A stretch of 64,000 nt of DNA from Ructibacterium sp. (GTDB lineage Bacteria; Bacillota; Clostridia; Monoglobales; Monoglobaceae): positions 677 through 64,676 of the forward strand of contig JAZNCG010000029.1 of the NCBI GenBank assembly GCA_045587405.1, read 5' to 3'. Position 1 is the stretch's first letter. Each line of letters opens with the position of its first letter. A model generated the notes under the pieces. The model had not been told where the DNA came from, ran no database searches, and was given only the letters and a program-made list of their open reading frames with translations. The position numbers were made by a program, and so were the translations under genes. Positions 4,301 to 51,268 of the stretch are shown piece by piece.

Positions 4301-5306
4301 AAATCTTCGGTCTTAAAATTTTACATGTTAAACGGTCTGAATCACTGTATTTAGCCCAGCCGAGCCATGATGCAATCCGCATCTTGTATTGCCTGTCATC
4401 AAGGTCTGTCCGATGCTTCAGCTTCGCACAAGCCTTGCAGAAATTCTTCTTGATTCCCTTGCGGATTCTTGTTTCACAGTGGTAGAATACAAAGCCCACG
4501 AAGTCAAGACCTCTACCGCTCTTGTCTCTGTGATTCTCCGCAATCCTGAACACCTGCCAATTACCTTTCATCTCAAGCTTCAGCTCGTTACGCAGGTACT
4601 CGGCACATTCCACCTGCAACTGATGACATTCCTCCTTTGTCCGTGCGAATATCACGATGTCATCCGCATACCTGAAGTAATGCTTGACCTTTTTCCCCTC
4701 CTTCAGCCAATGGTCGAAATAGGTGAGGTAGAGGTTTGCGAAATACTGTGACAGATAGTTTCCGATTGGAATACCATCTGCGCTGTCGATAATCTCATCA
4801 AGCAGCCACAGCAGTTCCGGGTCCTTAATCTTTCTGCGGATTATCATCTTCAATATCTCATGGTCTATTGACGGATAGAACTTGCGGATGTCGAACTTCA
4901 GACACCACCTCGTAGCCTCTCGGTCACGGATAATCTTCTGAACATTCTTTCGACAGCCACCTATGCCCCTGCCGTCAATGCAGGAGTATGAATCAGATGT
5001 GAACACCTTCATCCAAATAGGTTTCAGGACATTCATTATTGCGTGATGTACTATCCTGTCAGGATAATACGGGAGCCTGTAGATAAGTCTTTCTTTCGGC
5101 TCGAAGATTGTGAATACATCATAATCCGATGTCTTAAATGTGTGATTCTTCAGAGCTTCATGCAAATTCAGGATATTAGCTTCCCTATCCCTATCATGAT
5201 GCCTTACGCCATAGGTCTTCAGCTTGCCCTTACGGGCGTTCATGTCCGCAAGCTGCAAGTTCTCTACAGATATAATCTGCTGGTATAGATTTCCTATGCG
5301 TTTCAT
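4251..5306 (-). CDS. DGR reverse transcriptase
   Basis: YFRYADD catalytic motif, GIPIGNYLSQ DGR signature, adjacent TR/VR pair. Confidence 0.97.
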   Translation of the reverse strand: MKRIGNLYQQIISVENLQLADMNARKGKLKTYGVRHHDRDREANILNLHEALKNHTFKTSDYDVFTIFEPKERLIYRLPYYPDRIVHHAIMNVLKPIWMKVFTSDSYSCIDGRGIGGCRKNVQKIIRDREATRWCLKFDIRKFYPSIDHEILKMIIRRKIKDPELLWLLDEIIDSADGIPIGNYLSQYFANLYLTYFDHWLKEGKKVKHYFRYADDIVIFARTKEECHQLQVECAEYLRNELKLEMKGNWQVFRIAENHRDKSGRGLDFVGFVFYHCETRIRKGIKKNFCKACAKLKHRTDLDDRQYKMRIASWLGWAKYSDSDRLTCKILRPKIYEQIKQQHHASHLRAA

Positions 5307-5410
5307 TGTTTGCTTTTCTTAGTCGGAGTCTTCGGTTTCCCTACCAACACCTTTCTGAACAACTATTTTTCACCAAGAGGTGAGGCCCTTGTCTGTGTTT
5401 GTAATTTTCT

Positions 5411-5527
5411 AAAGCTAAGCTGAGAGCCGATGTTCGCATTCGTATTCGAGGGAGCGTTATTCGAGTTCGAGTAAGCGAGACCGGCATTCGCCCTGTTATT
5501 CGCATTACCGCCAAACAAAACAGCCCT
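5411..5527 (-). ncRNA. DGR template repeat (TR)
   Basis: Intergenic, 117 nt, 10 AAY codons in the target frame; differs from 5981-6097 only at TR adenines. Confidence 0.96.
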
Positions 5528-7333: not shown

Positions 7334-10300
7334 TTATTCATTATTTGATAACACCATGACTGAAACTTCTGGTTTAACTACATTGCCATCTTCCTGAATG
7401 TCTTCTTCGGTAGAACTCTTAACCATTGCGTAAGATGCAGCTGCTGCTGCCTGTTGTGTCGGGCTAATCCAATCCGATGTACTTATAATTTGGAACAAGA
7501 AACCTCCGGCATTCCAAGAATCATCATCTGCAATCACTACATCGAAATAGGTCAAAGTCTTCCCTTGCTCTGTACTATATTCATTACCTTTTCCACAAAG
7601 GCAAGCATATAGATTGTTTGGTGCAGATGTAATAGCTCCACCTGAAACAGTAATGAGCTGAGGAGTAAGCATTACATGAAAATTCGACACATCTGAGAAA
7701 TACATCGGGAGGTAAATCCTATATTTTCCGGTACTATCAAGTATCTTGATAGTCCAATTCTCAGAAAGGCCTGTCGTCATCAGTTCAGCTGACCACAGTT
7801 TTTCAAGATAAGGTGACTGCGGAACAAATATCCCCTGAAACAAAACATTCAATGGCATACCATAATATCCTACGGTCAGCACATTCTGACGATTAAGAAC
7901 AATCCAGCCGTAGAAAACTTTTTCTGTGCCATATCCCAAGAGAACAATGCACTCACGGGAAATCATCAACTGACTATGTTGTCTGCCGTTTTCATAGAAA
8001 TACTTTCCACTTGGGGCTTTCAAGAAAGTTCTACCATAAGCTATCGTGCCTCCCCACTTGTAGTTTGCAAGCCTGATTACACGACCTGAGTTTTCTGGGC
8101 CCCATGAAAAATCATCTGAGCTGATTTCATATCCGTCTTTATTGGATTCCGATGTAGAACTTGAAGCGGTAGTTTTCGGCAGCACTACATTGTCATGTTT
8201 AACAGAATCTGCTTCATTCCCATCGAAAACATTGACAGGCTTGCACTCTAAAGCAACCGCAGATTGTGAGCCTGTAGATGTCTCATACACAGCTTGTCCG
8301 TTAAAAGGTTCTTCAACAGCAGTATAACAGTATGAAACAACTCCCGAATCTGAATAGTTCGCCCACGCATAACGGCCATTCATGTCGCCTGCCGGATAAC
8401 GATGATACACCTTGCCATTACCACTATGTTTAATGTCATAAGAACGCCACAAAACAAACGGAGAGCAGAGTGAGCCTTTGACCTTCACATCATTAAATTC
8501 CCCTTCATTAAAGACACCTTGCTCAGCCTGTATTCTTCCATCTTCAAGAATCTGAGCTTTTCCGTCTTTAGTGAACATCCGTTTAGTAATGAGATTCTCT
8601 GTATCAATCAGGTTTGTTCTTATGTGACCATTCTCAATTATCGTATTCCCATTTTCCTCCGCTTCCTTAACCATTTCGGCATAGTCTGCATATCCGATTT
8701 TACGAGCTATTTCATCAAGGGCCACGACATTGGCATTTTCAGCTTTCTTGGAAGCATAGTATTTCTGCGAGTTGTCAATCAGGATAGTCTGAGCATCATA
8801 GTAGGCAGCAAAGAGCCTTGCGAGCTTTTCACGGTCAAATCCATCCGTTGAACCGACATTATAAAGTTCATTCTCATCAAGGAAGTCACGCAGATTGTAG
8901 TATGCAGCTCTGAAGCTGTCCATACCCCTGTAATTGAAAGTAAGGGATTTGCCATTAAAGGTCAATTTCTTACCGTTGAATGTCAGGGTTACTGCTTCAC
9001 CAACAGTGTAGCCGGATGCTGCGATGATGTCAATAGTGGTCTGGTATGAGCCTGTAGAGCCTATCTTATCGAAGCAAGGATAACCGTTTATCTTCTCCCA
9101 TTCTGTCCTGATGTAAGACTTCTCAGCTTCATCAAGAACATGGTCATTGTTCATTCTCTCGATAGCTTCCCTTGTACTCTGAATCTGCTCTTGCAGGTTG
9201 GTCACAGTCTCCTTGTATGCCCCCTCAAGGAACTCTTCGAGAGCTTTGTCATCGGTGTACTTCACTTTCTTGACCCAATGAGACTTGTTGTAAGAGCCTG
9301 AATCCTTGGTAGAGACCATCAAGTCGCCCACAGAAGCCTCGGACGGCATATCTGAAGAAGATGTATCATTCCCGATTATCCACATGTCATTTTCATGATA
9401 TGAGGTAGGCTTGTTCACGAACAGAGAAGCTTTACCGTCTATCTGGTCAAACAACTCATTCGGGATATTCTTCTGCACCCACTTGTATGTATTATCTACA
9501 AACTGCCACCAAGCTGTTTTCATCGAGGCTATTCCGCTGATGGCCGTGCGGGATGTATTCAGCCACATATCGCCCACATGGGCTTTCTTAACCTCGGTAG
9601 TCAACCACTCGGAAGCTGGGTCTGATGACTGAACGAAAGACATAGCTTTGCCGTCAATCTGACTTCTCAAGGTTTTCACGGTGTCAGCATATTCTCCTGT
9701 GATGAAGGTCTGCAATGCACTATCATCGGTATAGCGGACAAACTTCTTCCAATGAGCTGCGGAATAGGTTTCGCTTGTTGCTGTAGCTATGAGTATGTCG
9801 CCCGGCACGCAATCAGCAGGCACATCACCGGCTGTCAAGCCCTCTTCCATTATCCACATATCCCTTGCCTTGTAGTTCTTAGGCTTGCTCACATAGATAG
9901 AGTTCTTTCCGTCAATCTCATCGAAGATAGCCTTTGGCACAGGGGATTGCTCCCAATAGTATTTTGTACCGTCATACCTGTATATCGCAGTTGCTCCAGC
10001 TTCAACGCCTGAAATATCACTATCTGAAGAGTTCCACCACATGTCGGACACATGCTTTGCCTTGACCTCATCTGTGGTCCAGCTTGCAGCAGGGTCAGTC
10101 TTCTGTACATAAGTCTCCGCCTTTTCATCCAAGGAAGCCTTGAGACCTGCAATTTCTTCAGCATAATCGCCCTGAATGAACTGATTGAGAGTGTCCTTTG
10201 CACTCATGTCGGCATAGTAATACTGAGCATTTTCAAGAAGCTTTTCCTGTGCATCGTAATATGCCGTGAAGAGGGAGGACATCTTCAGACGGTCATATCC

Positions 10301-24395: not shown

Positions 24396-25910
24396 CTATT
24401 TTTCAGGGTTTTCAGCTGGCTTCTCAGCCGGATTATTCTGATTGGCAACAGGATTCTTCGCCTGCTGTTCCTTTTCAATCTGGGCTATCTCTTCTTCTAC
24501 TTGGTCAGTCATGCCGATGAAGATGATACCGCTCTTCTGTGACATGAATCCAGCTTCCTTTGCCTTTGTCGCATCTTCGATTCTCTCTCTGAGATTGTCG
24601 ATAGTGAACGGATTTATCTTCACGGTCAGCTCTATAGATTCAGAAGCTGATTTCAAAGCAGGGCAGATGGAGCCTGTCGCTGCCACAAGGAAATTGTATC
24701 TTCTCTGAAAGAACTCGCCCAGAACTTCTCCGTGATTATCCACTGCAAGGTGTGTAGCCATGAACATGTATTTGAAAGAGACACCTGATGCGACCTGTCC
24801 GATGTTCTTCATGTTCTCGAAAGTGATTCTCGGAGTGTCCGTCATTCCATAGATGTTCTCGAACAGGGTGGTAATCTCCAGCTTTATAGCTTCAGGGGTC
24901 TGGTCCCATGTGAGGTAGTAAGCATCTGCATCATCCTCGACCTTAATCATCCTGCGCCTTTCATCCTGACTGCCACGACCAGCTTCGCCCGACAGTTCAC
25001 CCTTGAGGATGAGGTAAGGGAAGAAATGATAGTCGATGCAGTCAGCATAATCCGAAAGTGTCATCTCCAGCTTCCGTCTCATGGACCTGATATTGTGGCA
25101 AAGGCTTCTGTCACGATAGCCATAGATGCACGGGAGTTTCGGGAGCTTGTGTGCAAAGCTCTTTTCAGGAACTAAAGTCCACACACCATCTGCCTGCTTC
25201 CACACAAAGACATCCGTAGCTGTGACGGTCTGGAAATAGGTGACGGTCTTTCTACCTGTCAGTGTGTATTCGGTCTTGGTGTACTGACGGCTCTGTGCCA
25301 CATAGTCACCGGATTCATCAAAGAAAGGGTACAGAGTATCGCCCCTGAAAGGCGACCATATAACGCACCGCAGCTTGCTCTCCGGCTTGGTGTTTCCGAA
25401 AAGGCTCTTGAGCTTCGCTGCCACTTTCGCCCAGAATCCTGTGTCCTGCTTCTTGTACCAATACTCCACGACCTCCTGCTCCGCAAACCATGAACGGGCA
25501 ATCTTCTTGTTCTGATAGCGGATTTTATTGTCTCTGTTGATTGTCTGAATGACAGAGTACAGGTCATCTTCTTTGCTGTTGTTCGCCTTGTAGTCAAGAG
25601 TGAGGTCTTTGCCTACTGTGAAAGCAGTGTGAATGTTGACAATCTCCTGCTCGATAGGCAGGGCGATTCTGTTCACATCTTCCTCCTGATATACGGCTGG
25701 CTTGATAATCTTGCCATTCTCGGCCACCACAGACTCAGAGATGAGTACACGCCTTTTCTTACGGATTGCAGGATTCATAACCTCATGTTTGTCCGGGTCC
25801 CACTCGCTGCGGAGTTCCTTGACATTCGGCAGAGGTGTCGTTCTGTGTTTCTTGAGCAGCTGGATTTTTATGTTGATGTCTTCAACTGCAAGGATTTCTT
25901 CAAGTGTCAT
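24396..25910 (-). CDS. Portal protein (SPP1-like)
   Basis: 504 aa after TerL; YLTW and SGVSFKY motifs. Confidence 0.88.
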   Translation of the reverse strand: MTLEEILAVEDINIKIQLLKKHRTTPLPNVKELRSEWDPDKHEVMNPAIRKKRRVLISESVVAENGKIIKPAVYQEEDVNRIALPIEQEIVNIHTAFTVGKDLTLDYKANNSKEDDLYSVIQTINRDNKIRYQNKKIARSWFAEQEVVEYWYKKQDTGFWAKVAAKLKSLFGNTKPESKLRCVIWSPFRGDTLYPFFDESGDYVAQSRQYTKTEYTLTGRKTVTYFQTVTATDVFVWKQADGVWTLVPEKSFAHKLPKLPCIYGYRDRSLCHNIRSMRRKLEMTLSDYADCIDYHFFPYLILKGELSGEAGRGSQDERRRMIKVEDDADAYYLTWDQTPEAIKLEITTLFENIYGMTDTPRITFENMKNIGQVASGVSFKYMFMATHLAVDNHGEVLGEFFQRRYNFLVAATGSICPALKSASESIELTVKINPFTIDNLRERIEDATKAKEAGFMSQKSGIIFIGMTDQVEEEIAQIEKEQQAKNPVANQNNPAEKPAENPEK

Positions 25911-25933: not shown

Positions 25934-27118
25934 TTATCTGAATGTTCCTGATGGTACTCCTGTTTTCTTCGAGTGCTTACCCATAAGCTCTTCAAGGCAG
26001 ACATAGCGAACACCGTCAAGAATGTGGTTGAAGTCATCTACAGGCTCATTCAGCCACTTTCCTGTGCTGTCCTGCTGATAGGTATAGTTCTTCAGCTCCT
26101 TGATTGCGTTCACTGAACGGGATGTCACATAGATTTTCTGACAGCTCTTCATGAAGTCAATACCAGCGACCACAGACCCAGCGAATTTCTTGACCGGCTT
26201 GATTTTCAGACCTCCATCTTTCAACTCCTTCACCATGCGAGGGTCGGCTGATTCACTGATGATTTTGTAAGGTGACAGCATCTTCTTTCCGGCTTTGATG
26301 ATGTCTCTTGTCGTCATCTCGGTCTGATAGAACTTCTCATCTATGTACAGGCAGTTTTTATAAAATCCTACTTCAGCAGCAGCTGTCGGGTCATGAGTAA
26401 ATCCGAAGTCAAGACAATTCCATCTCTTTGTAACCCAAGGAGGGATGTCGCCCTCGATAATCTCCCAATTCGAGAAAATCTGCCCCTCGATTGTCGCCCT
26501 CAAGCCGAGACCATAAATCTTCCATTTCCTGATGTCAACAGTACCGTTGGCATAGTTCTCTTCTGTCGGCTCATAAGACAGGATTTTCCGTCTTGAGTTG
26601 TCAGGGATGAAAGGATTATCCAGCATCGTAGAGTGGTCATAATAGCAGTCTGTACGGGTGCAGACTGAATCATAAATCCAATGCTCTTCAGCTGACGGGT
26701 TATAGTCGAGAATACTGAAACGGGATGTTCGCTGCTCCATCTGGTCGAAGTCATCTTTTGATGCTTCCATAGCCTCGTTTATCCAGATTATGTCAGCTGT
26801 GAGACCGTGCAGCTTCTGAGTGTCGTCAAGTCCTATGAACTCGAATACTGTTGAAGCCAGCCGGATAGTCTTTACGGTCTTGTTTATCTTGCAGAACGGC
26901 AGCAGCCCCAAGTTCAGAAGAATCAGGTTGAAGTCGTTCCAGATTGTCGAAGCAATCCATGTTCCTTTCTTACGGGCAATGACAACACGGGTCGGCAAGG
27001 TCGGATTCGAGAGAGCATAGCTGATGAAGAACTGAATAATCGAATATGTCTTTGAACTTCGGGAGCCTCCCTCAAAGACAAAGACACGGTATGACCCCTG
27101 CTGTAAGGCAGACATCAA
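25934..27118 (-). CDS. terL: Terminase large subunit (PBSX/SPP1-type)
   Basis: Walker A GGSRSSKT, Walker B WINEA, nuclease DFGF..DP and NHILDGVRY. Confidence 0.93.
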   Translation of the reverse strand: MMSALQQGSYRVFVFEGGSRSSKTYSIIQFFISYALSNPTLPTRVVIARKKGTWIASTIWNDFNLILLNLGLLPFCKINKTVKTIRLASTVFEFIGLDDTQKLHGLTADIIWINEAMEASKDDFDQMEQRTSRFSILDYNPSAEEHWIYDSVCTRTDCYYDHSTMLDNPFIPDNSRRKILSYEPTEENYANGTVDIRKWKIYGLGLRATIEGQIFSNWEIIEGDIPPWVTKRWNCLDFGFTHDPTAAAEVGFYKNCLYIDEKFYQTEMTTRDIIKAGKKMLSPYKIISESADPRMVKELKDGGLKIKPVKKFAGSVVAGIDFMKSCQKIYVTSRSVNAIKELKNYTYQQDSTGKWLNEPVDDFNHILDGVRYVCLEELMGKHSKKTGVPSGTFR

Positions 27119-27155: not shown

Positions 27156-27773
27156 TTATTGGCTCGGCTTCTTGAATTTCTCCTGTAACTCCAAGTCGGA
27201 TTTCTGATTGTAGGTTATTCGCAGATTGACAACTGACGGAAGCTCCTTCGCCTTTGCTTCAGCTGCTTCAGCTTCAGCCTGCTTGTGACGGAGGATATTT
27301 TCACGCCATTCATCATCATGGTTGTAAAGCATTGTGGCAAGTGCCTGCATGTTCGGGGCAAGCTCCATCTCCTGAGTGGATATAAGCTCATCATCTGTCA
27401 ATGTGCCGTCCTGTAGCCGGATTCTCTGCTTTGTTGTGGTCTTTACAGTTCGCTGTCCCAGAGCCATCTGAAAGTAAGTGGAACGGGCCATCTGCATGAG
27501 GGTGCTTCGCCCGTGCGCTAAGGCTTGACATAACTGTTTGCTTCGGTCAGTCGGCTCTCCATTCTTTTTTTTCTCATTCTTGAATCGGCTAAAAGTCTCA
27601 GGCGTAAGACTTTCCCCATATTTTTTTTGCAATTCATAAGCAATCGAAGAATCTGAATATCCCATAGAAGCAAGCTCCTGAACGACTTGATAAAATTCAG
27701 GATTATCGTAATCAAATTTGGGCGGTCTGCCTACCTTTGACTGCTTTTTCTCTTTTTTTTGTTTGCTTCCCAT
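27156..27773 (-). CDS. terS: Terminase small subunit
   Basis: GRPPKFD N-terminus, HTH, immediately upstream of TerL. Confidence 0.7.
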   Translation of the reverse strand: MGSKQKKEKKQSKVGRPPKFDYDNPEFYQVVQELASMGYSDSSIAYELQKKYGESLTPETFSRFKNEKKKNGEPTDRSKQLCQALAHGRSTLMQMARSTYFQMALGQRTVKTTTKQRIRLQDGTLTDDELISTQEMELAPNMQALATMLYNHDDEWRENILRHKQAEAEAAEAKAKELPSVVNLRITYNQKSDLELQEKFKKPSQ

Positions 27774-27903: not shown

Positions 27904-28650
27904 TTATTCGATGAGTTCGATTCGTTCCGCAAAGACATCTCCGTTTATGAACTTATCTGTCGGCTCATATCCAAACCTTGACATAAATTCCATCTTCGCT
28001 TCTCTTGAGGTAAATGACAGGGTTATGAAGCTGTCCGCTTCCGCTGCTTTCTCTTCGGCTTTCTCCCTTATCTGAGCCTTTGCCTGTTTCACGGCTTCTT
28101 TCTTCTGTTCGTTCAGTTCTTCCACAGGTCTCTGCATTTCCTCAATGTCCTGCTTCATCACATCCACCTTCGGGACATCTATCTTCACGCCAAAGACAGC
28201 AAGGTCAAGATTCGAGAAGCCGGCTCGCTTGGGGTCTATCTGATTCAGCAGCACCTTGACTTTTGGCTCGTTCCATTTTCCCTGAGCCGATGGGTTGTTC
28301 ATGAAGAAGTTGATTTCTATCTCCGTCTTCTGGTCAACATCTATAAGCTCGACCTTGACAGGGTAATCATTCTCAGGATAGTGCGCCATGTCATCGAGAA
28401 GGGCTATCTTCTGATGTCCTGACACGATTGTATATCCCGTCTGCTTGTTCACGATTATACCACCGAGAAGACCGAAATCTTTCAAGCCTCTCTTCAGGGT
28501 CTTTTTCGCATTTTCATCTATCTCACGGGGATTGTAGTCTGCCGGATGAATCTCTGAACGCATCAAGGTCACTGTCTCTGATGCTGTCAATATGAATTGC
28601 AGCCATTCAGGTATTCCACCTGCTTCAGCTGCCTGTGATTTCTTTGCCAT
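27904..28650 (-). CDS. ParB/Srx-like N-terminal domain protein
   Basis: HPADYNPR, IIVN..TG..IVSGHQ motifs. Confidence 0.85.
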   Translation of the reverse strand: MAKKSQAAEAGGIPEWLQFILTASETVTLMRSEIHPADYNPREIDENAKKTLKRGLKDFGLLGGIIVNKQTGYTIVSGHQKIALLDDMAHYPENDYPVKVELIDVDQKTEIEINFFMNNPSAQGKWNEPKVKVLLNQIDPKRAGFSNLDLAVFGVKIDVPKVDVMKQDIEEMQRPVEELNEQKKEAVKQAKAQIREKAEEKAAEADSFITLSFTSREAKMEFMSRFGYEPTDKFINGDVFAERIELIE

Positions 28651-28720
28651 ATATTTCTATTATTCTTGATTCTATGTTTAATCCTTAATAAACTCTGGAG
28701 ATATAATAATATATATTATA

Positions 28721-29410
28721 TTACTCTTCCCCTCGGTGTTCAGCTTTGTAGAGTATTATTTCAGCCTGTGGAAAGGCTTCGAGAATCTTCTTGAGGTCTT
28801 CCGGGTAATGCTGACGGAGGTACAGGAAACATTCTTCACTGAATGTCAGGCCCTGCGACTTCTGCCGTGTGGAGTACCGGACAGGCTCCGGCAATCTGTT
28901 CTGCTTCAGATACGCCAGCACCTCATTGTTGCCCCACCTTGACAACGGATATACATTCTTCGTCTTGGGGTGAATCGCCTGAAGCTCGTACTCTTTGCCC
29001 TTCAGCATTATGCCCCTGTTCATGTTGTCAGACTGCTTCATTCCGTACAGGCAGTAATCTATGCCGAACTTCAGACGGCAATTCTCTGCCACATCGCTGA
29101 ACTTCATCAGTTTCACATCCGGCTGGGGCTGACAGTACAGACCTGTTTTCAGGGTATAGGTGAGATTCCAATGTGGCACTTCATGAAACTCCACATTCGG
29201 ATATCTCAGCTTGGAATACTCTATGTACTTGTTGATGTGTTCCAGACCTTTCACAAAGTACATATACACACAAACCACTCTCCTGAAGTGCGGAGCAACA
29301 AGGTCGAGAAGAGCGATGCTGTCCTTGCCTGCACTATAGAAGAGAATGACTGAATCCGTCTTCTGACGGACCCAGTCAAGGACTGCTTGGGTATGTTCCC
29401 TGTTTGTCAT
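28721..29410 (-). CDS. PAPS-reductase-like (PP-loop) protein
   Basis: YSAGKDS PP-loop, GMKQSD..R and YPLSRW motifs. Confidence 0.85.
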   Translation of the reverse strand: MTNREHTQAVLDWVRQKTDSVILFYSAGKDSIALLDLVAPHFRRVVCVYMYFVKGLEHINKYIEYSKLRYPNVEFHEVPHWNLTYTLKTGLYCQPQPDVKLMKFSDVAENCRLKFGIDYCLYGMKQSDNMNRGIMLKGKEYELQAIHPKTKNVYPLSRWGNNEVLAYLKQNRLPEPVRYSTRQKSQGLTFSEECFLYLRQHYPEDLKKILEAFPQAEIILYKAEHRGEE

Positions 29411-29413
29411 GGC

Positions 29414-29572
29414 TTAACCTGCTGCCAAACCAAGACCACTACGGAGGTCACGATACACCGTTCTGCGAGATACATATCTTCCACCATGCGAGAGCGCACC
29501 GCCTGAAGATGTACTCAGTCCACGCCTACCACCTCGGTAGCCGGATGTCGAATAGGTACTTCTGTTTCCCAT
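29414..29572 (-). CDS. 52-aa Gly/Arg/Ser-rich basic peptide
   Basis: Manual translation MGNRSTYSTSGYRGGRRGLSTSSGGALSHGGRYVSRRTVYRDLRSGLGLAAG; fills the gap between operon genes. Confidence 0.7.
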   Translation of the reverse strand: MGNRSTYSTSGYRGGRRGLSTSSGGALSHGGRYVSRRTVYRDLRSGLGLAAG

Positions 29573-29592
29573 AACGCACTGAATTAAAAAGG

Positions 29593-30000
29593 TTAAACAT
29601 TGGAATCTATGATTGCACCCAGCTTGTAGTCAATCTGAGCGGAAACATATTCTTTGCCCTTGTACTTGTACACCCTTGCATAGGTGTTCCCCTTGTCGTC
29701 CTCTTCTGTGAGGATGAAGATTTCAGCCTCCTTGACAGCCACGACAACCTCCGGGCTGCCGGACTTATCTGCCGTCTTCAGACGGAGTGCATCATATTTG
29801 AGAGGTCTGACATCTATCTCAACCTCATCAGGAACTTCATCATAGGTCTTGTACACCTTTGAAGGGTCGGATTTGTCGAAATACTCGATGTACTTCTGAG
29901 ATGTCTGTGGGCGGATTTCTCTTGTAATGGTGGTCTTCTCGCCCGATACCACCTCGGCAAGCTGCTCTGGCTTCACCGTCAAAGTCAAAATTTCTTTCAT
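29593..30000 (-). CDS. ASCH-domain protein
   Basis: LTLTV...SGEKTTITREIRP motif. Confidence 0.7.
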   Translation of the reverse strand: MKEILTLTVKPEQLAEVVSGEKTTITREIRPQTSQKYIEYFDKSDPSKVYKTYDEVPDEVEIDVRPLKYDALRLKTADKSGSPEVVVAVKEAEIFILTEEDDKGNTYARVYKYKGKEYVSAQIDYKLGAIIDSNV

Positions 30001-30027
30001 TTCTTTTGCTGTTTATGGTGTAAGTTG

Positions 30028-30101
30028 TTGCAGGGGCAGGCATCGAACCTGCGACCTCAGCCAAAGCCACGGCTGCGAGCTGCCAACTGCTCTACCCTGC
30101 G
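30028..30101 (-). ncRNA. Initiator-tRNA-like element with aberrant anticodon loop
   Basis: Cloverleaf: CGCAGGG acceptor with C1:A72, D-arm GAGC/GCTC, stem CAGCC/GGCTG around 8-nt GTGGCTTT, T-arm GCAGG-TTCGATG-CCTGC. Confidence 0.7.
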
Positions 30102-30110
30102 GTGTAGGTG

Positions 30111-30118
30111 CAAAAGTA
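30111..30118 (-). promoter_or_regulatory. -7 box of the putative late-operon promoter
   Basis: TACTTTTG fits TAnnTTTG, about 10 nt before the tRNA-like element. Confidence 0.6.
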
Positions 30119-30280
30119 TCGACAAAGGGCAGGGCTTCAGGTCTTTGACCTGACCTTATTCGTGAATAACGCCCGTATATTCACCGATTAAAGCCGAACA
30201 GGGGCAAGACAAAAAGAAGATAGGGCAAAGCCTGTAAGACCTTGCCCCGCCCGAATGGGTGCGCCCGATTGGGCTGTGTG

Positions 30281-30796
30281 TCAGATGAAATTCAGATTTG
30301 AGTAGAAGCAATCGCTATAGCGAACATAATTGCCGAACATCTTTATATTACCCTTGTCTGTTATAAATGCGAATCGTGACCCACCGATAACGCCCGAAAC
30401 TGCCTTTTTGAATTTGCCCGAATTGATACCGCTGCACTCTATCTCAGGCAGAAGAACATTTCTGAAAGCCGTTTCGCTGTCTGTCATGTCACCGTCAGGC
30501 ACAAGCGACAAAACGCCATTATGAGCGAAAGAAACGCCCGTGTTTTCATCTCTGAACGGGTGACAGTTCGCAAGCCTTATGCTGCCATGCGTGGCAAATC
30601 TGAAATGAATCACTGCCGGCACCTCTGATTTTGCCACACTTTGAAGCTCTTTATAAAACCGCTTAAAGCTCATTGACTTGAAGACCTTGCCAGGCACTGC
30701 GAAGCCGAAGCCGTCTGGGTTTCTCTTTGCACATCTTGAAATGATTTCGTAAGGGGGCAACTGTGCCCCCTGTGGCTTTACTATGATTATACACAT
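30281..30796 (-). CDS. Class II glutamine amidotransferase
   Basis: N-terminal Cys (MC), NPDGFG, HFRFATHG, HPF, AHNG, TDSE motifs. Confidence 0.92.
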   Translation of the reverse strand: MCIIIVKPQGAQLPPYEIISRCAKRNPDGFGFAVPGKVFKSMSFKRFYKELQSVAKSEVPAVIHFRFATHGSIRLANCHPFRDENTGVSFAHNGVLSLVPDGDMTDSETAFRNVLLPEIECSGINSGKFKKAVSGVIGGSRFAFITDKGNIKMFGNYVRYSDCFYSNLNFI

Positions 30797-30816
30797 AACT
30801 GATATATATTTAATTA

Positions 30817-31737
30817 TTAAAACACCTCAAAGACCTCTTTTCTACCCTTGTAGAATGATTTCAGACGGTTTGTCAAAAAAGGCAATTCGTCTATTGTCGT
30901 TGCTGTCAAAGGCTCTTCACTGCTCAGGCTGTACTGTAAGAAGCAACTCAGAAACTCAACCCAATTTCTAATTTTCTCGAAATTTGTCGTACCGTTGTGC
31001 TGTCTGAACTCTATCGTTTTATGAGTGTTGTACGCCATTGCATTGACCTTGAAATATCTGTCATTATCAAAGCCATAGAGCTGTATCTCTCGAATCGTAT
31101 CACAGTCGCCCCCTCTCAGCCTTTCTGCGACCTGTGCCATGCCTTTGCAGTATGTGTTATTTCGCCTGCTGTTTGGCATGAAGCTGTCGATTATTGGCTC
31201 TATAGCTGCATAGTTCATGATAATGCGCTGATACTGCTTTACAGTGAACTTTGAAGCCCCGAAATGAACATGAAGACCGCAAGACCTGTTAACCTGTGCC
31301 CCTGCTTCATTTATAACCTCGCAAACAGTCTTCAGGCTGTCAAGGTTTCGCAAGATTGGCGAAACTACCTCACAGCTGTTCGAGCCTGTAATCGAGCTGT
31401 CTGAACCGAGTTTGTAAGATGTCTTGCTGTCGTGATGATTGTAGCCTGATATATGAGCCTGAAGACCTCTTCTTTCAATCGCTGCCCTGACCGCCTCTCT
31501 GTCGATGTTGAAACATTCGATTTCAACGCCTATAGTAAAACGCCTTGCCCCTCTTGGGGTTGCAGATGTTAAGGCTGCCCCCCCCTGTGACATGAGCTGC
31601 ACACCTCTAACCTGATTGTAGAAAGTGTTAGCTTCATAGACTGTACATTTCAATTCGTTGCAAAGCCTGTGAATCTTGCTTGCCTTTGTACCTCTGTCAA
31701 GAACTATCGCCTTAACCTCGTCAAAAAATGTAGCCAT
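30817..31737 (-). CDS. Amidoligase (COOH-NH2 ligase, Amidoligase_2 family)
   Basis: GVEIEC, D.SI, EVVSP, SCGLHVH, TIEFRQH motifs. Confidence 0.9.
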   Translation of the reverse strand: MATFFDEVKAIVLDRGTKASKIHRLCNELKCTVYEANTFYNQVRGVQLMSQGGAALTSATPRGARRFTIGVEIECFNIDREAVRAAIERRGLQAHISGYNHHDSKTSYKLGSDSSITGSNSCEVVSPILRNLDSLKTVCEVINEAGAQVNRSCGLHVHFGASKFTVKQYQRIIMNYAAIEPIIDSFMPNSRRNNTYCKGMAQVAERLRGGDCDTIREIQLYGFDNDRYFKVNAMAYNTHKTIEFRQHNGTTNFEKIRNWVEFLSCFLQYSLSSEEPLTATTIDELPFLTNRLKSFYKGRKEVFEVF

Positions 31738-31750
31738 ATCTTTGTTTTGT

Positions 31751-32068
31751 TTAGTTGTTAAACTCTCTGCAATTCGCTATTGTCTGAGGCTTGAAATACA
31801 TGTCTCTTTCAACTTTGAGACAGCCCCAAACTCTAAGGCTTTCAAGCTGTGAAAGGGTGAAATAGCCATATTCTTTTTCACCTGCATTGTCAATCACCCC
31901 AAAAAATTCATAGTCGTTTGTGCCTATCTTGTTAGCTTCAAGCACATACCATGTGTAATTTGCAAGAAAGAACTTGCAGATGATTGTAGCTTCTTTCTTT
32001 TTGCCATCTTGTGAATAGATAGGGTACTTTGCTAATCTGTTAGCGATTTCTTTTGTAATGAGTTTCAT
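31751..32068 (-). CDS. DUF2958-like protein
   Basis: KFF..TWYVLE, EYGYFTLSQLE, VERDMYF motifs. Confidence 0.75.
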   Translation of the reverse strand: MKLITKEIANRLAKYPIYSQDGKKKEATIICKFFLANYTWYVLEANKIGTNDYEFFGVIDNAGEKEYGYFTLSQLESLRVWGCLKVERDMYFKPQTIANCREFNN

Positions 32069-32115
32069 AATGCTGTACTTTATTATTATTTATATATATC
32101 TTCATTTTGTTTCTG

Positions 32116-32223
32116 CAAATGTAGATATAAATAAATTAACATGCAAGTATTTTTCAAAAATAATTTATACAAATCTTAATTTTATAGAAAAATTTGCATT
32201 TATAAATAAAGTGCGTATATTTG
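32116..32223. promoter_or_regulatory. Divergent promoters (amidoligase operon / HTH gene)
   Basis: Minus-strand TACATTTG at 32116-32123; plus-strand TTTG 32193-32196, 19 nt, TATATTTG 32216-32223. Confidence 0.7.
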
Positions 32224-32249
32224 CACAACTTTTATAATAATTTAGATTT

Positions 32250-32534
32250 ATGAACATTTTAGAGACAGTAAAACAGATTTGCAGGGTCAGGGGCATGTCT
32301 CTTGCTGATGTCGCCTTGAAAATGGGTGTACCTGCTTCTTCTTTATCTCAGATATTGAGAGGCAACCCCACACTTTCAAAACTCAACGACATAGCCAACG
32401 CCCTAAATGTGCCGGTAGCTGAACTGCTCGCAGAAGGCAGCACCAGAGCGCAGGTAGAGTGTCCGCACTGTGGCAAGACATTCCCACTCGACATCAAGGC
32501 AGCCAAGGAGGTGCCGGCAGATGGAGAAGCCTAA
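32250..32534 (+). CDS. XRE-family HTH regulator with C-terminal CPHCG zinc knuckle
   Basis: GNPTLSKL..IANALNV and CPHCGK motifs. Confidence 0.88.
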   Translation: MNILETVKQICRVRGMSLADVALKMGVPASSLSQILRGNPTLSKLNDIANALNVPVAELLAEGSTRAQVECPHCGKTFPLDIKAAKEVPADGEA

Positions 32535-32946
32535 CAGACAAAACACTCTGTATCTCCCAATCAAGCAGGTCTTCTTTGATGAGATTGTAGCTGGTACCAA
32601 GAAAGTGGAATACCGGGAAATCAAAGAGGGTGTGACAGCGAACAAATACCTGATTAAGGATGATATGACCGGGTATAAGCTCAACCCTGAAAATGTCGAT
32701 GACCCTGAAGGTACCTATTTCATTGACGACTACAACGACGGCAAGTTCCCTTTCCTGCCGAGACAGTACAAATACCTGAACTTGGCTGTAGGCTATGCCA
32801 AAGAGAGAGACACGGCCATCGTAGAAGTGACGGGCTTTTCATTCACGCCCCACATGATAAGAAACGACAAACATGGCAATCCGTGCTATGCGTTCTGGAC
32901 CATCAACATTCATCTGGGGCAGGTCGTCACAGTTCACCGCAAGTAA
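32521..32946 (+). CDS. ASCH-domain protein
   Basis: LYLPIKQVFFDEIVAGTKKVEYREIK; start set at MEKPN. Confidence 0.8.
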   Translation: MEKPNRQNTLYLPIKQVFFDEIVAGTKKVEYREIKEGVTANKYLIKDDMTGYKLNPENVDDPEGTYFIDDYNDGKFPFLPRQYKYLNLAVGYAKERDTAIVEVTGFSFTPHMIRNDKHGNPCYAFWTINIHLGQVVTVHRK

Positions 32947-34330: not shown

Positions 34331-35200
34331 TCATAATTCAATTCCAAAATAATTCTCAAGATATTTCTTGGTATCTAAATCGTTAAAGAACATACCCCCC
34401 CCCATTTTTATTTTATAATCCTCATAGCTGTCACAGAACAGATTGTGAAAAACAATGTTATAAGCATTGCCAAATTTCTTGTGTGATTCAGCATTGGGAT
34501 GAGTATCTAACCATTTCTGAGCTGACTTAATCAGCCTCTTCAGCAGCTTCGGGTACTTCAGATAATCTTTCACTCCATTATCAGACTGCAAAGGACAGCC
34601 GAGACAGCCCAAACGCCTTTCTACATGGAAGTTTCCCTGTTCATCATAATACAGAGGGTGACAGGTGATTCCCCGTTCCTTGACAAACCTCTCCACATCA
34701 CTGTCCGTCCAATCCAAAATAGGAAGATAGAGCTTGACCCTTTCACTCTTCGAGTACACCCTGCAAATCTCCGGCTCGCTATATCGTTTCGCTCTCTTGG
34801 TACTTTCCGACCTCCGGATTCCTTGTACAGCTCTGTCAAGCACCTTGTATTCCTTGAGGTGAGAGCAGCATGTCCTCGCTCTGCGTGTCGGACAGCCTGA
34901 CATTTCCACGACTTCAAAGAACTTCATTTTTGGTGGCAAGATTTCAACTCCCTTGCTTCTGACATGGCGAATTGTACCCGGTGGGTCAATAGTGGTATTC
35001 TTGTAGATTGCCCGGAATGGAATACCGGCCATCTTTGCCAGCTCAAGAATGACATCAGAATCCTTTCCACCCGAATATGATATTTCTATCGGACCATCTT
35101 GAGGAATGTTTTTAAGCAGCCGGATTGCCCGTGCTTTCTTTTTCTCATATTTGGCAAGTTCATCTTCCTCGACTTGCATGAAATCGTCTGTTTCTTTCAT
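34331..35200 (-). CDS. PAPS-reductase family protein with Fe-S cysteines
   Basis: SGGKDS, TCC..LKE, GIRRSES..R, RLGCLGCP motifs. Confidence 0.88.
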   Translation of the reverse strand: MKETDDFMQVEEDELAKYEKKKARAIRLLKNIPQDGPIEISYSGGKDSDVILELAKMAGIPFRAIYKNTTIDPPGTIRHVRSKGVEILPPKMKFFEVVEMSGCPTRRARTCCSHLKEYKVLDRAVQGIRRSESTKRAKRYSEPEICRVYSKSERVKLYLPILDWTDSDVERFVKERGITCHPLYYDEQGNFHVERRLGCLGCPLQSDNGVKDYLKYPKLLKRLIKSAQKWLDTHPNAESHKKFGNAYNIVFHNLFCDSYEDYKIKMGGGMFFNDLDTKKYLENYFGIEL

Positions 35201-36783: not shown

Positions 36784-37119
36784 TCAAATATCTTTTTTTA
36801 ACCACACTTGGCTCGATTCCGCTTCAAAGCCCATTCTCTTATACCACTCTCTAACCCAATCGTCATGGTCACTTCGGAGAGATATTGAATTACAGCCCCA
36901 ATCTTTTGCACACTCAAAACACCAATTAAGAATGGATGTTGCACCACCTTGTTTTCTTATGCTTTCGTGAACATACAGGTCAGATATAACGGCTTCTTGC
37001 GGAGTATCGTTATAGAAGCTCAATCTACAAGAAACACGGCCATCATCAGAGAATACGAAAAGAACTTTGTAATCATCCCAAATTTGAGGGACGGAATTGA
37101 AATTGAATTTAGATTTCAT
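36784..37119 (-). CDS. GNAT-family acetyltransferase
   Basis: LYVHESIRKQGGAT acetyl-CoA motif and WYKRMGF. Confidence 0.85.
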   Translation of the reverse strand: MKSKFNFNSVPQIWDDYKVLFVFSDDGRVSCRLSFYNDTPQEAVISDLYVHESIRKQGGATSILNWCFECAKDWGCNSISLRSDHDDWVREWYKRMGFEAESSQVWLKKDI

Positions 37120-48940: not shown

Positions 48941-49906
48941 TCAGCCGTCCAGCTGCTTCAGAAGATTCTTCAGACCTCTGCCGTCCCGAATGGTCTTGCC
49001 GGTAGCCCAGCCACTGTAAGGAAAGAACTTCACCGTCTTGCCCTTGTGGGTGAACTCTATTCGGGTGCCGTCTCTGTAGGTTATCTCATAGCCTCTGCCC
49101 TCAAGCTGTGCGACTGCATAGGCTATGCGTTCAGGCTCAAGCCGTGCCTGTCTCTCGGTGTCAAGTCGTGCCATATCTACATATATCTTTCTTCTCGCTC
49201 TCGTTCTGCCCTCTCTTCACAGGCATCGAGATATGCGTTATAATCCTCGTCCGCATCATAGTCCGGGTCTCTCTCAGGGTCTGCCGGGTGCATGTAAAAA
49301 TCTCGTTTCGGGTGCCAGCTCATAGCTCTCTGATATTATGGGTTTGTCTTCGGGGTTTTGTGCAGCGGTCTGGTACTGTGACCGCTGCCGTTCTCTCATT
49401 GCCCTGTAGCCCTCTTTCAGGCTCTCGAACTCTTCAGGCGTTAGTCTCATTCTTTTCAGATAGTTCGGGGTGCAGCCTTTCAAATAAGTCGCTGACCGCT
49501 ATAGCTGTCGGCAAGACTGCGACCATGTAAATGATATTGAAAAGGTACTGTACGCCCTGAGACTGACCGAAAACGGTCACCATGCTGTCTGTCACTGTGA
49601 TGTAGCCACATGCCAAGACTGCGACAAGGGCGAGGGCGTTGATGATTGCCTGCTGTCTGTGATTGCGTTTCATTGCCTGATATTTTAGAGGTTTACCGTT
49701 TCGCCTGTGGCAACTGTCGCCACTATTGCGATGTCGTGAAAATTGGGGCGTTTTGGGTCAAATTTCATGAGGTACAGGGTGCAGCCTGTCTCTATGCTCT
49801 TCTTTTGCATCGCTGCTGTCGCCTCTGCCTGTGACATGCCGTCAACAACTGCGACCCGTTCTCTCTGGGCTGCTGAATTGAGCTTCACGAACTGATATGT
49901 AGCCAT
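48941..49906 (-). CDS. Cluster of small early hypothetical ORFs (48941-49174, 49434-49673 membrane, 49685-49906)
   Basis: ORF track, co-directional. Confidence 0.55.
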
Positions 49907-49918
49907 GATTTCAGGGGT

Positions 49919-50239
49919 TTAGAGGGGTAAGACATTTGCAACCTTGAAGCATCTGAACTCTTGCCTTTCAGTGTCAAAATAGACCTGCACTGTAGGGTTT
50001 TTCAGTCGCCTGTCATTGCCCTCTATTGCCGGCATGAGTTCGCTCTTGAGTGTGCCGTATGCTTCTCTGATTGAGCCGTCAACTTTCTGATAATAGAATT
50101 TGACTATACCTTTGAGCATCTGCTTCTTTAACTTGAAGACCTGCCAAGCCTGTTTGAGAGCTTCAGAAAGCTCGAAGCCGTTTCGCTTGACGAACTGCCA
50201 AGCCATTTGCATGATAGTGCGTAAATCAGTCTTTTTCAT
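49919..50239 (-). CDS. SH3-like beta-barrel (WYL_2/DUF2693-like) protein
   Basis: VKFYYQKVDGSIREAYGTL and YFDTERQEFRCFK. Confidence 0.8.
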   Translation of the reverse strand: MKKTDLRTIMQMAWQFVKRNGFELSEALKQAWQVFKLKKQMLKGIVKFYYQKVDGSIREAYGTLKSELMPAIEGNDRRLKNPTVQVYFDTERQEFRCFKVANVLPL

Positions 50240-50260
50240 GTCGTCAGTCTTTAGAGGGGT

Positions 50261-50701
50261 TTAGATTGTTTCAAGTGAGTTTCTGAGGTCTGCGAGGGCT
50301 TTAGCTATCTTCTTTGCATTGCGAAGCACCTTTTGACCTGTTTCGCTTTCATAAGCCTGTTTTGATTCTTTTATAGAAGAATGTGAGAGAGCTTCAAAGC
50401 CCTGTGCCATCACTTCACATCTTTCAAGTTTTGCCATCATTGACTTGTAGTCGCTCTTGATAGCTCTTAAATAGGTTTCGTGTGTCATAGCTGTAGGGGT
50501 TTACTTCTGAAAATACTTTGTCATGTCTTCTACAGTGTAGTAGTCAGGCTCATAGATGCCCTGCTTTTTGTCTTCTACCTCAAGCACATTCTTTATATAA
50601 TCGTGTGCAGCTTCAGGCGTTGAGAACTTCTTTGAGGTGTAGGCTTCAGAATCGCCCTTCTCGACCTCTTCTCTAACGAAAATCATAAATACCTTTTTCA
50701 T
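50261..50701 (-). CDS. Two immediate-early hypothetical ORFs (50261-50488, 50501-50701)
   Basis: First genes after the leftward promoter. Confidence 0.65.
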
Positions 50702-50738
50702 CTTCTTTGTTGTTTGTTGTTGTTTGCTTTTCTTTTGT

Positions 50739-50777
50739 TATCTTTGAAACGAATTTCAAAACGACTTTGCAAAGGTA
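50739..50777. promoter_or_regulatory. Face-to-face lysogeny/lysis switch promoters
   Basis: Plus TATCTTTG at 50739-50746, minus TACCTTTG at 50770-50777. Confidence 0.65.
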
Positions 50778-50851
50778 AACAAAGTTTTCATATCTGCAAA
50801 CTATTTTGTGAAAAAGTTTACATTTTGTTTGCAAAAAAGTTTTTACGACCT

Positions 50852-51268
50852 ATGTACATAAATGTAAGTCAGAGATTTATACAGGTGATAGAACACCTGA
50901 AAGATAGTAAACAGCTCAAGAATCAAGCTGAATTAGTTACCATTTTAGAGGTTTCAAAGGGGTATGTTTCGCAGCTTGTAAACGGAACAAGAGAGCCAAG
51001 CGAGACAGTGGTTAGCAAATTAGTAAACTATTTTCCTGAGATTAACGCCCACTGGCTTTTTACCGGTGAAGGAGACATGCTGAACACTCAGCCGAAAAAT
51101 TCTCAGGTAATTGGGAACAACAGCGGAACAGCGATAAACGGAGACGGGACGGTAGTTCACCCAGCCGGAGACAGCCGGACCATAGAGCGGATGCAGAATC
51201 AGATAGACGAACTTCTCGCACAGAACGGAAAGCTCCTTGTCATCATTGACAGATTGACACAGAAATAA
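50852..51268 (+). CDS. CI-like XRE repressor (no S24 peptidase domain)
   Basis: HTH (ELVTILEVSKGYVSQLVNG) and INAHWLFTGEGDM; divergent from early genes. Confidence 0.85.
   Translation: MYINVSQRFIQVIEHLKDSKQLKNQAELVTILEVSKGYVSQLVNGTREPSETVVSKLVNYFPEINAHWLFTGEGDMLNTQPKNSQVIGNNSGTAINGDGTVVHPAGDSRTIERMQNQIDELLAQNGKLLVIIDRLTQK

Follow-up and report, generated by a model that had tools for sequence, protein, structure and literature searches.

A terminase-linked cassette of ASCH-fold, Gly-terminated peptide, PP-loop and ParB-like genes in a gut Bacteroidota prophage, and its association with GGA/TCC-free zones

We analysed a stretch of 64,000 nucleotides (hereafter called the window) of contig JAZNCG010000029.1, from the Ructibacterium sp. 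assembly GCA_045587405.1, which holds a gut Bacteroidota prophage. The DNA-packaging operon of this prophage is opened by a cassette of four genes, encoding a protein of the ASCH/PUA fold, a basic peptide of 52 aa, a PP-loop ATP pyrophosphatase of the PAPS-reductase family and a ParB-like protein. All four open reading frames (ORFs) lie on the (-) strand and are followed in the same direction by the securely identified terminase genes terS and terL and the portal gene (Table 1), the intergenic gaps from the ASCH gene to terL being 20, 3, 70, 130 and 37 nt. The original prediction had described these genes as a packaging-coupled DNA modification cassette directly ahead of terS-terL; their identity as a set, their order and their place are borne out by ORF positions, protein families and conservation. 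It is reasonable to regard them as the head of the late operon. The Bacteroides-type promoter motif upstream of them is the sole (-) strand match to TAnnTTTG from position 30118 down to 24234; the motif is no more frequent in the window as a whole than expected by chance, which makes the promoter call suggestive only. Since a tRNA-like leader sits between the motif and the ASCH gene, the true first element of the operon is this leader.

Table 1. Features of the window and of the tRNA genes of related loci (loci of the comparison carry L numbers)
Feature	Position	Strand	Evidence or remark
Portal gene	24396-25910	-	ORF after terL
Terminase large subunit gene terL, Terminase_3 family	25934-27118	-	PF04466 (2e-22), PF17288 (6e-18)
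Terminase small subunit gene terS	27156-27773	-	phrog_309 (1.7e-13)
ParB/Srx-like N-domain protein, 248 aa, with coiled coil and conserved C-terminal domain	27904-28650	-	phrog_9353
PP-loop ATP pyrophosphatase, PAPS-reductase family, 229 aa	28721-29410	-	PF01507, phrog_424
Gly/Arg/Ser-rich basic peptide, 52 aa	29414-29572	-	Codon substitution pattern; homologue alignment
ASCH/PUA-like fold protein, 135 aa	29593-30000	-	phrog_625; predicted structure
tRNA-like leader with initiator-type acceptor and D arm and aberrant 8-nt anticodon loop	30027-30101	-	ARAGORN tRNA-??? (ggct)
Candidate late promoter, Bacteroides-type -7 motif TAnnTTTG	30111-30118	-	Motif search
Terminator-like hairpin with T tail	30222-30248		Just upstream of the promoter motif; closes the GATase/amidoligase unit
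GGA/TCC-free zone 1	29913-32462		2549-bp gap; 0 sites, about 56 expected
GGA/TCC-free zone 2	49262-50984		1722-bp gap; 0 sites, about 39 expected
ORF of 127 aa	36399-36782	-	No family match; 1 nt on from the GNAT gene
GNAT acetyltransferase gene	36784-37119	-	
tRNA of L003	L003:3912-3984		
tRNA of L008	L008:3314-3387		
tRNA of L017 (BS-TP2)	L017:30195-30267		
tRNA of L028	L028:9087-9159		
tRNA of L060	L060:9108-9181		
tRNA of L063	L063:9352-9426		

In 9 + 80 IMG/VR loci (found with the ParB-like and the PP-loop protein as query, respectively), the genes follow the order ASCH-peptide-PP-loop-ParB-terS-terL-portal, at identities of 33-100%; grouped at 90% identity, these loci make up 17 clusters. 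In L027-L056 the cassette is kept though terS and terL are of another type. The core of the cassette also lies beside the terminase genes of cultured phages, namely Riemerella phage RAP44 (gp34-gp31, with gp34 ASCH-like), Bacteroides phage BS-TP2 (gp52-gp56, with ASCH annotated), the Lactobacillus phages LR1 and JNU_P7, Pasteurella phage Pm86 and Bifidobacterium phage BigBern1. A literature search on PAPS reductase, ParB-like protein, terminase and phage gave none or incidental matches only. PP-loop/ParB modules beside terminases are a widespread class of gene sets and not a new one, their biochemistry is unsolved, and the nearest known system is IbrA/IbrB; the cassette of the window adds an ASCH-fold protein and a Gly-terminated peptide to this class. 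A separate observation concerns L008 and L009, in which an insertion of about 1.4 kb separates the PP-loop gene from the ParB-like gene (L008:4614-6001 and L009:3865-5228).

The identity of the 229-aa protein as a PAPS-reductase-like PP-loop enzyme, as originally proposed, is well founded, in that it scores above the Pfam cut-off and has kept the ATP motif. It matches PAPS_reduct (PF01507) with 27.0 bits, against a gathering cut-off of 22.5, over residues 21-174, as well as phrog_424 (1e-21) and the IbrA-type phrog_2302 (1e-9). The PP-loop, S-x-G-K-D-S, is intact, with S26, G28, K29, D30 and S31 invariant in six homologues of 50-82% identity. A comparison with BrxP gave E 2.8e-4 over 30 residues only, there was no SspD match above noise, and a PDB search by sequence found no match for this protein. 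The early region of the prophage carries a second PAPS-reductase-family gene (289 aa; 34331-35200, (-) strand), whose product has an SGGKDS loop, CC...CxxC cysteines and weak matches to DndC and BrxP; the second copy in RAP44, gp56, adjoins a methyltransferase.

The ASCH label given to the 135-aa protein stood at the level of the fold, but found no backing from sequence models. The protein has no Pfam or NCBIfam match at E <= 0.01, the ASCH model PF04266 included, and falls into a PHROG family to which no function is assigned (phrog_625). Its AlphaFold model is of high confidence (predicted local distance difference test, pLDDT, 93.6), and the top structural match among 48,161 chains is the ASCH protein 3iuw_B (Z 8.7, root mean square deviation 2.7, 76/80 residues aligned), followed at Z 5-6 by ZmASCH, YqfB, the TRIP4 ASCH domain, and PUA and YTH domains. 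Foldseek compared the protein with ZmASCH at a probability of 0.9-0.97, yet with E > 0.1, and its pdb search returned nothing at E <= 0.001. According to the predicted structure, the protein is of the ASCH/PUA fold, which is confirmed at fold level only. An ASCH paralogue belonging to the same PHROG is encoded at 32470-32946 on the (+) strand.

The ParB identity of the 248-aa protein stands on PHROG profiles and a weak match to Spo0J (6sdk, E 0.0098 in the PDB search). The protein matches phrog_9353 at 2e-63, the ParB-like phrog_620 at 1.8e-14 and another ParB-like family at 1.2e-8, and the N-terminal part of the methyltransferase phrog_498 matches it at 6e-16. The AlphaFold model has a mean pLDDT of 59.1. 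With hhalign, the C-terminal domain (27904-28050) was aligned at low probability with ORF52 of Pm86 (L013:4671-5099; E 0.011) and with gp60 of BigBern1 (L015:1521-2156; E 0.052), while BLASTP of the same domain against these two proteins was not significant. A likeness of the C-terminal domain to free-standing proteins encoded next to the PP-loop gene in these two phages may thus serve as a weak lead. Pm86 seems to be without any ParB N-domain.

The 52-aa Gly/Arg peptide, said in the original prediction to have been overlooked, is a real gene, as synonymous changes dominate its divergence and homologues occupy the same slot in relatives. A comparison of the window with L004 gave 27 synonymous and 10 non-synonymous changes, L008 with L068 gave 15 and 5, and L068 with L071 gave 9 and 1; the remaining two frames across the ORF contain many stops. 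The counterpart in BS-TP2 is annotated as gp53; annotation pipelines have mostly missed or mis-started this Gly-terminated peptide. Among 13 diverse homologues G48 and G52 are invariant, forming a tail G-L-x-x-G whose last residue is always Gly, while the body of the peptide is variable, basic, rich in Gly, Arg, Ser and Thr, and predicted to be disordered. Prediction of a complex of the PP-loop enzyme, the ParB-like protein and the peptide gave a score of 0.01, with the fold of the peptide uncertain. In LR1 (L012:4544-4969) and JNU_P7 (L014:4663-5034 and 5037-5459), basic, Gly-terminated proteins of 123-141 aa are encoded between the PAPS-reductase-like and ParB-like genes, and these may be counterparts of the 52-aa peptide.

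In relatives, the element that precedes the ASCH gene is a full tRNA, scoring 55-59 bits with the Rfam model in L003, L008 and L028. It has an initiator acceptor arm, A11:U24 and A73, and its position 1:72 is unpaired (CxA, UxU or AxA), with the exception of the CAT class (L003/L007), where U1 pairs with A72. The peptide ORF of the relatives contains no in-frame ATG, GTG or TTG before the conserved N-terminal part, whereas such codons are present in the other genes of the cassette; instead, the codon at its 5' edge pairs with the anticodon of the operon tRNA. Anticodon GAC is found with GTC in 30 loci, where it comes right after an in-frame TGA, in L070 and L084, where it is codon 3, and in BS-TP2, where GTC stands 11 codons upstream of the annotated ATG. 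Anticodon AAC goes with GTT in 6 loci, AGT with ACT in about 30 loci, at both of their tandem peptide genes, and GGT with ACC at both genes of L060 (ARAGORN reported 'ggtg', and the loop was read by alignment with the AGT class), while in L003 and L007 anticodon CAT goes with ATG. The peptide starts at ATG in the window, L004, L005, L022, L083 and L095, all of which have either no tRNA or a degenerate one.

These pairings of nucleotide sequences fit a phage-private initiator pair, formed in the relatives by the tRNA anticodon and the peptide start codon, and gp53 of BS-TP2 is probably annotated 11 codons too short. Dedicated tRNA gating would mean that the peptide is important enough to have its own translational control. 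Two other ways of starting the peptide were considered and rejected: a -1 frameshift at CCCTTTA, because the -1 frame meets TGA at once, and read-through from the ASCH gene, because the frame relation to ASCH varies between lineages. In the leader of the window, 1:72 is unpaired (CxA) and the initiator features A11:U24 and A73 are present; with an 8-nt loop and an Rfam tRNA score under the gathering threshold, it looks like a relic, or like an element with another role. Val and Thr identity switches belong to the classical anticodon-switch initiator work. Compared with engineered anticodon-switched initiator tRNAs (PMC11744186), the pairs of the relatives are natural and phage-encoded (anticodons GAC, AAC, AGU and GGU with codons GUC, GUU, ACU and ACC), while the tRNA of the window is degenerate and its peptide starts at ATG. 

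Loci of the AGT-tRNA class (L027-L062, e.g. L029:9590-9817 and 9846-9998) have two tandem peptide genes between the ASCH and PP-loop genes; both peptides end in Gly, and the matching ACT codon stands in the same short context. Two relatives carry pistol ribozymes (60-64 bits), placed some 0.4-1 kb ahead of the tRNA on its upstream side (L028:8055-8119 and L060:8624-8691), and one relative has a c4-2 antisense RNA (L028:4449-4522).

The second feature of this prophage is the lack of the trinucleotide GGA/TCC in two zones. The window holds 1766 GGA/TCC sites, with a mean spacing of 36 bp, and the voids noticed in the original prediction are real when set against the numbers of sites expected (Table 1). 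GGA/TCC is alone among the di-, tri- and tetranucleotides in leaving gaps of this order in the window, and no further GGA/TCC gap of this kind was found in the host metagenome-assembled genome. Void 1 takes in the initial 88 nt of the ASCH gene and extends upstream past the tRNA-like leader and late promoter; it also spans GATase-like, Amidoligase_2 and DUF2958 genes, the divergent promoters and the greater part of a gene for an XRE regulator. Void 2 lies over the genetic switch and the beginning of the early operon, with a WYL_2 protein encoded at 49919-50239. The void is independent of frame and strand and extends across genes of variable content, and it must therefore act at the level of nucleic acid. 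A codon-level cause, such as a depleted tRNA-Gly or tRNA-Ser, was rejected, since neither GGA nor TCC occurs in any frame, on either strand or between genes. The class II GATase-like gene (171 aa) and the Amidoligase_2 gene (306 aa, 8e-37) inside void 1 (30281-31737, (-) strand) are present as a pair only in some relatives, and the void persists without them.

The co-occurrence of void and cassette, which had been put forward as a check of the original prediction, was tested across phages with a positive outcome in Bacteroidota. In RAP44, GGA/TCC gives the most improbable trinucleotide void (28653-29917), starting 223 nt upstream of gp34, and in BS-TP2 it again gives the most improbable void (28740-29475), just ahead of gp52, and GGAA is missing as far as 30838. 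In 36 of 78 further IMG/VR loci, GGA ranks first as a void among all 32 trinucleotide pairs, and the large majority of these have their widest GGA/TCC gap upstream of the PP-loop gene at no more than about 3.3 kb from it, irrespective of the genes that occupy this stretch. For 13 dereplicated clusters, the median density is 16.7 sites/kb in the 3 kb upstream, against 30.5/kb in the cassette and downstream DNA, and 10 of the 13 dereplicated relatives have an upstream gap of at least 450 bp. For comparison, we scanned upstream of terL only in 20 Bacteroidales prophage loci that have a Terminase_3 terL and no PP-loop, ParB or ASCH homologue, and none showed a gap of at least 450 bp within 12 kb; Hankyphage and B40-8, scanned whole, had no GGA/TCC void either, giving 0 of 22 cassette-less Bacteroidales sequences. 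The link between void and cassette is therefore supported in this sample; it is confounded by lineage and does not amount to causal proof. In L025, the strongest void is one of CCC/GGG (L025:492-1649, 1157 bp), which lies over the PP-loop and ParB genes and not upstream of them.

We tentatively propose, as a possible reading that we hold with less than even confidence, that the cassette is a late-made module for DNA-directed marking or processing which depends on GGA/TCC, and which has the peptide as its partner or donor. From the sequence comparisons, the cassette appears to be the best candidate for a reader or writer of GGA/TCC, the modification itself, like its bulk and its coupling to packaging in the original prediction, being hypothetical. 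We infer DNA as the substrate, GGA/TCC as the target, the role of the peptide and the reason for the voids. Transcription of the operon would begin at the promoter motif (30118) and run through the tRNA-like leader. The PP-loop enzyme would adenylate a substrate with ATP, the ParB-fold protein, perhaps together with the ASCH-fold protein, would bring this chemistry to nucleic acid, and the Gly-terminated peptide may be a stoichiometric partner, a cofactor or the activated group. The outcome would be a late mark on phage DNA, or its processing, just before packaging and dependent on GGA/TCC. The two GGA/TCC-free zones, with their promoters and first early and regulatory genes, would then stay unmarked and readable on entry to the next cell. 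The ParB fold is also seen fused to DNA methyltransferases, here through the phrog_498 and PADLOC MTase_II matches.

Several observations weigh against a DNA-marking role. The likeness of the PP-loop enzyme to DndC, on which the original prediction had drawn, is not upheld: there is no DndC match and no CysH model above its cut-off, and the Fe-S cysteine pattern CC...CxxC is not in the protein, so that on its sequence the enzyme is without the hallmarks of DndC and hence without the features expected for phosphorothioation. IbrA's DUF3440 was not found by Pfam, and the protein ends at residue 229. The ParB assignment, for its part, is weak, as the match to ParB_N (PF02195) reaches 17.7 bits and stays under the cut-off of 26.3. 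The Box II Arg of ParB folds is needed for NTP binding (bioRxiv 10.1101/2025.10.10.680097); Box II of the 248-aa protein reads G-H-Q-K, invariant in seven ParB-like homologues, with Lys in place of the Arg seen in NTP-binding ParB folds. No notable trinucleotide void occurs in LR1 or Pm86, whose PP-loop module comes without ASCH, and the cassette-bearing positives belong to related lineages, in which another shared trait could cause the voids.

The wider composition of the prophage points in the same direction. As far as about 52.2-52.8 kb, the prophage contains no GATC, ACGT or CTAG at all. Of the 64 six-base palindromes, 37 are missing in 50.5 kb, where 3-29 copies of each would be expected; CGCG occurs 3 times in window positions 1-52800. 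Such extreme absence of palindromes is the pattern of unprotected DNA that survives by being without sites, and it argues against blanket protection. The pattern points to site avoidance and away from a bulky, genome-wide protective mark. With 9 occurrences, TCCGGA is not avoided, and the lack of GGATCC follows from that of GATC; two palindromes are too small a set for a conclusion. Finally, the replication genes beyond void 2 have a normal GGA/TCC density, so a mark that blocks transcription would hit them, and a further remedy would be needed.

Two other explanations do without a mark on DNA at GGA/TCC, and we consider each of them unlikely. In the first, the module is a packaging accessory without a covalent mark: the ParB-like protein would, as a nuclease or clamp, aid terS in locating or cutting the start of packaging, the peptide would be a protamine-like agent of DNA condensation or an internal part of the virion, the PP-loop enzyme would serve the same process, and the voids would have some other cause. 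The position beside terS-terL is invariant across phyla, the cassette is kept even with the other terminase type of L027-L056, and the peptide has the strongly basic, predicted disordered character that this role would call for; however, it is not obvious what an ATP-pyrophosphatase would do in packaging, the module is missing from most phages that share the terminase family, and the invariant C-terminal Gly is left unexplained. 

That Gly is the starting point of the second explanation, to which we give about the same chance. Here the PP-loop enzyme would activate the Gly of the peptide in a ubiquitin-like, Pup-like or microcin-C-like manner, yielding late in infection a tagged protein or a peptidyl-nucleotide effector, directed for example against the host or a defence, and the voids would reflect an unrelated activity of host or phage. 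The peptide is of low complexity and without a ubiquitin-like fold, although its terminal Gly and G-L-x-x-G tail are invariant in the 13 homologues and the relatives gate its translation with a dedicated initiator-type tRNA. In the Lactobacillus phages, small basic proteins with a terminal Gly are encoded between the PP-loop and ParB genes, but Pm86 and RAP44 have no Gly-terminated partner; similarly, the amidoligase/GATase pair often adjoins the cassette but is absent in many relatives.

Control of transcription, of the IbrAB type, seems improbable to us. IbrA/IbrB of E. coli ECOR-9 (YbdN/YbdM) are also a pair of a PAPS-reductase PP-loop protein and a ParB-fold protein, found in prophages and often beside terminases; phage genes have been annotated accordingly (PMC4490671), and the cassette of the window stands at the start of the late operon. 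However, it would then lie inside the very operon that it activates, and separate late regulators are encoded in other carriers (a Q antiterminator in Pm86, ArpU in JNU_P7 and an ArpU-like ORF in LR1), from which it follows that the PP-loop/ParB pair is not simply a late activator. The system of the window also differs from IbrA/IbrB in its PP-loop protein, which at 229 aa is without DUF3440 and matches phrog_424 over phrog_2302, and in the added ASCH-fold protein, peptide and upstream void.

We regard as very improbable a more specific form of the DNA-marking proposal, a peptide-DNA hypermodification in which the PP-loop enzyme, guided by the ParB-like and ASCH-fold proteins, would activate the invariant C-terminal Gly of the peptide and attach the peptide by a covalent bond to GGA/TCC in phage DNA just before packaging, sparing the entry regions because they do not contain the word, with the supply of peptide gated in most relatives by the private initiator tRNA. 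Least credible is an RNA-directed role, in which the ASCH-fold protein and the PP-loop enzyme would modify or mature the operon's own tRNA or leader, as TilS acts on anticodons: a tRNA gene does lie directly before ASCH in most relatives and ASCH/PUA folds usually bind RNA, but RAP44, LR1 and several relatives carry the module without a tRNA, the enzyme belongs to PAPS_reduct and not to the tRNA-modifying ATP_bind_3 family, and ParB would be left without a role.

Marking or processing of DNA by the cassette would have partial parallels among known systems. DndB/DndC, SspB/SspD and BrxP (BREX type 4) likewise employ a PP-loop ATP pyrophosphatase, and DndB is the ParB-like member of the Dnd system. 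Phosphorothioation takes place at words of 3-4 bases, such as NCTC or GAAG in Bacteroides (bioRxiv 10.1101/2024.06.03.597175). The cassette of the window differs from these systems in having no Fe-S cysteines, no model match above noise and no DndA, DndD or DndE partners. The ParB N-domain occurs fused to DNA methyltransferases and to ASCH, DUF3850 and PUA-like domains, and such fusions are enriched in prophages (bioRxiv 10.1101/2025.10.10.680097). In the window the parts are instead separate genes, the partner is a PP-loop protein, and Box II is of the G-H-Q-K type. Late, self-limited marking of DNA and site-free entry regions are familiar from Mu Mom, the first-step-transfer DNA of T5 and gene 0.3 of T7. 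What our proposal shares with the logic of these phages is a mark or a vulnerability at a short word, from which the early DNA is kept free; the differences are that the word is a non-palindromic trinucleotide, that there are two separate zones, and that the link between enzyme and motif is only a candidate.

PP-loop/ParB modules beside terminases are among the commonest unexplained gene sets of temperate phages. The present analysis provides handles on them, in the form of a candidate target word (GGA/TCC), a conserved Gly-terminated peptide, and the cultured carriers BS-TP2 and RAP44. If the link between void and cassette is true, these modules would represent a new way in which phages mark their DNA and yet keep their entry genes readable.

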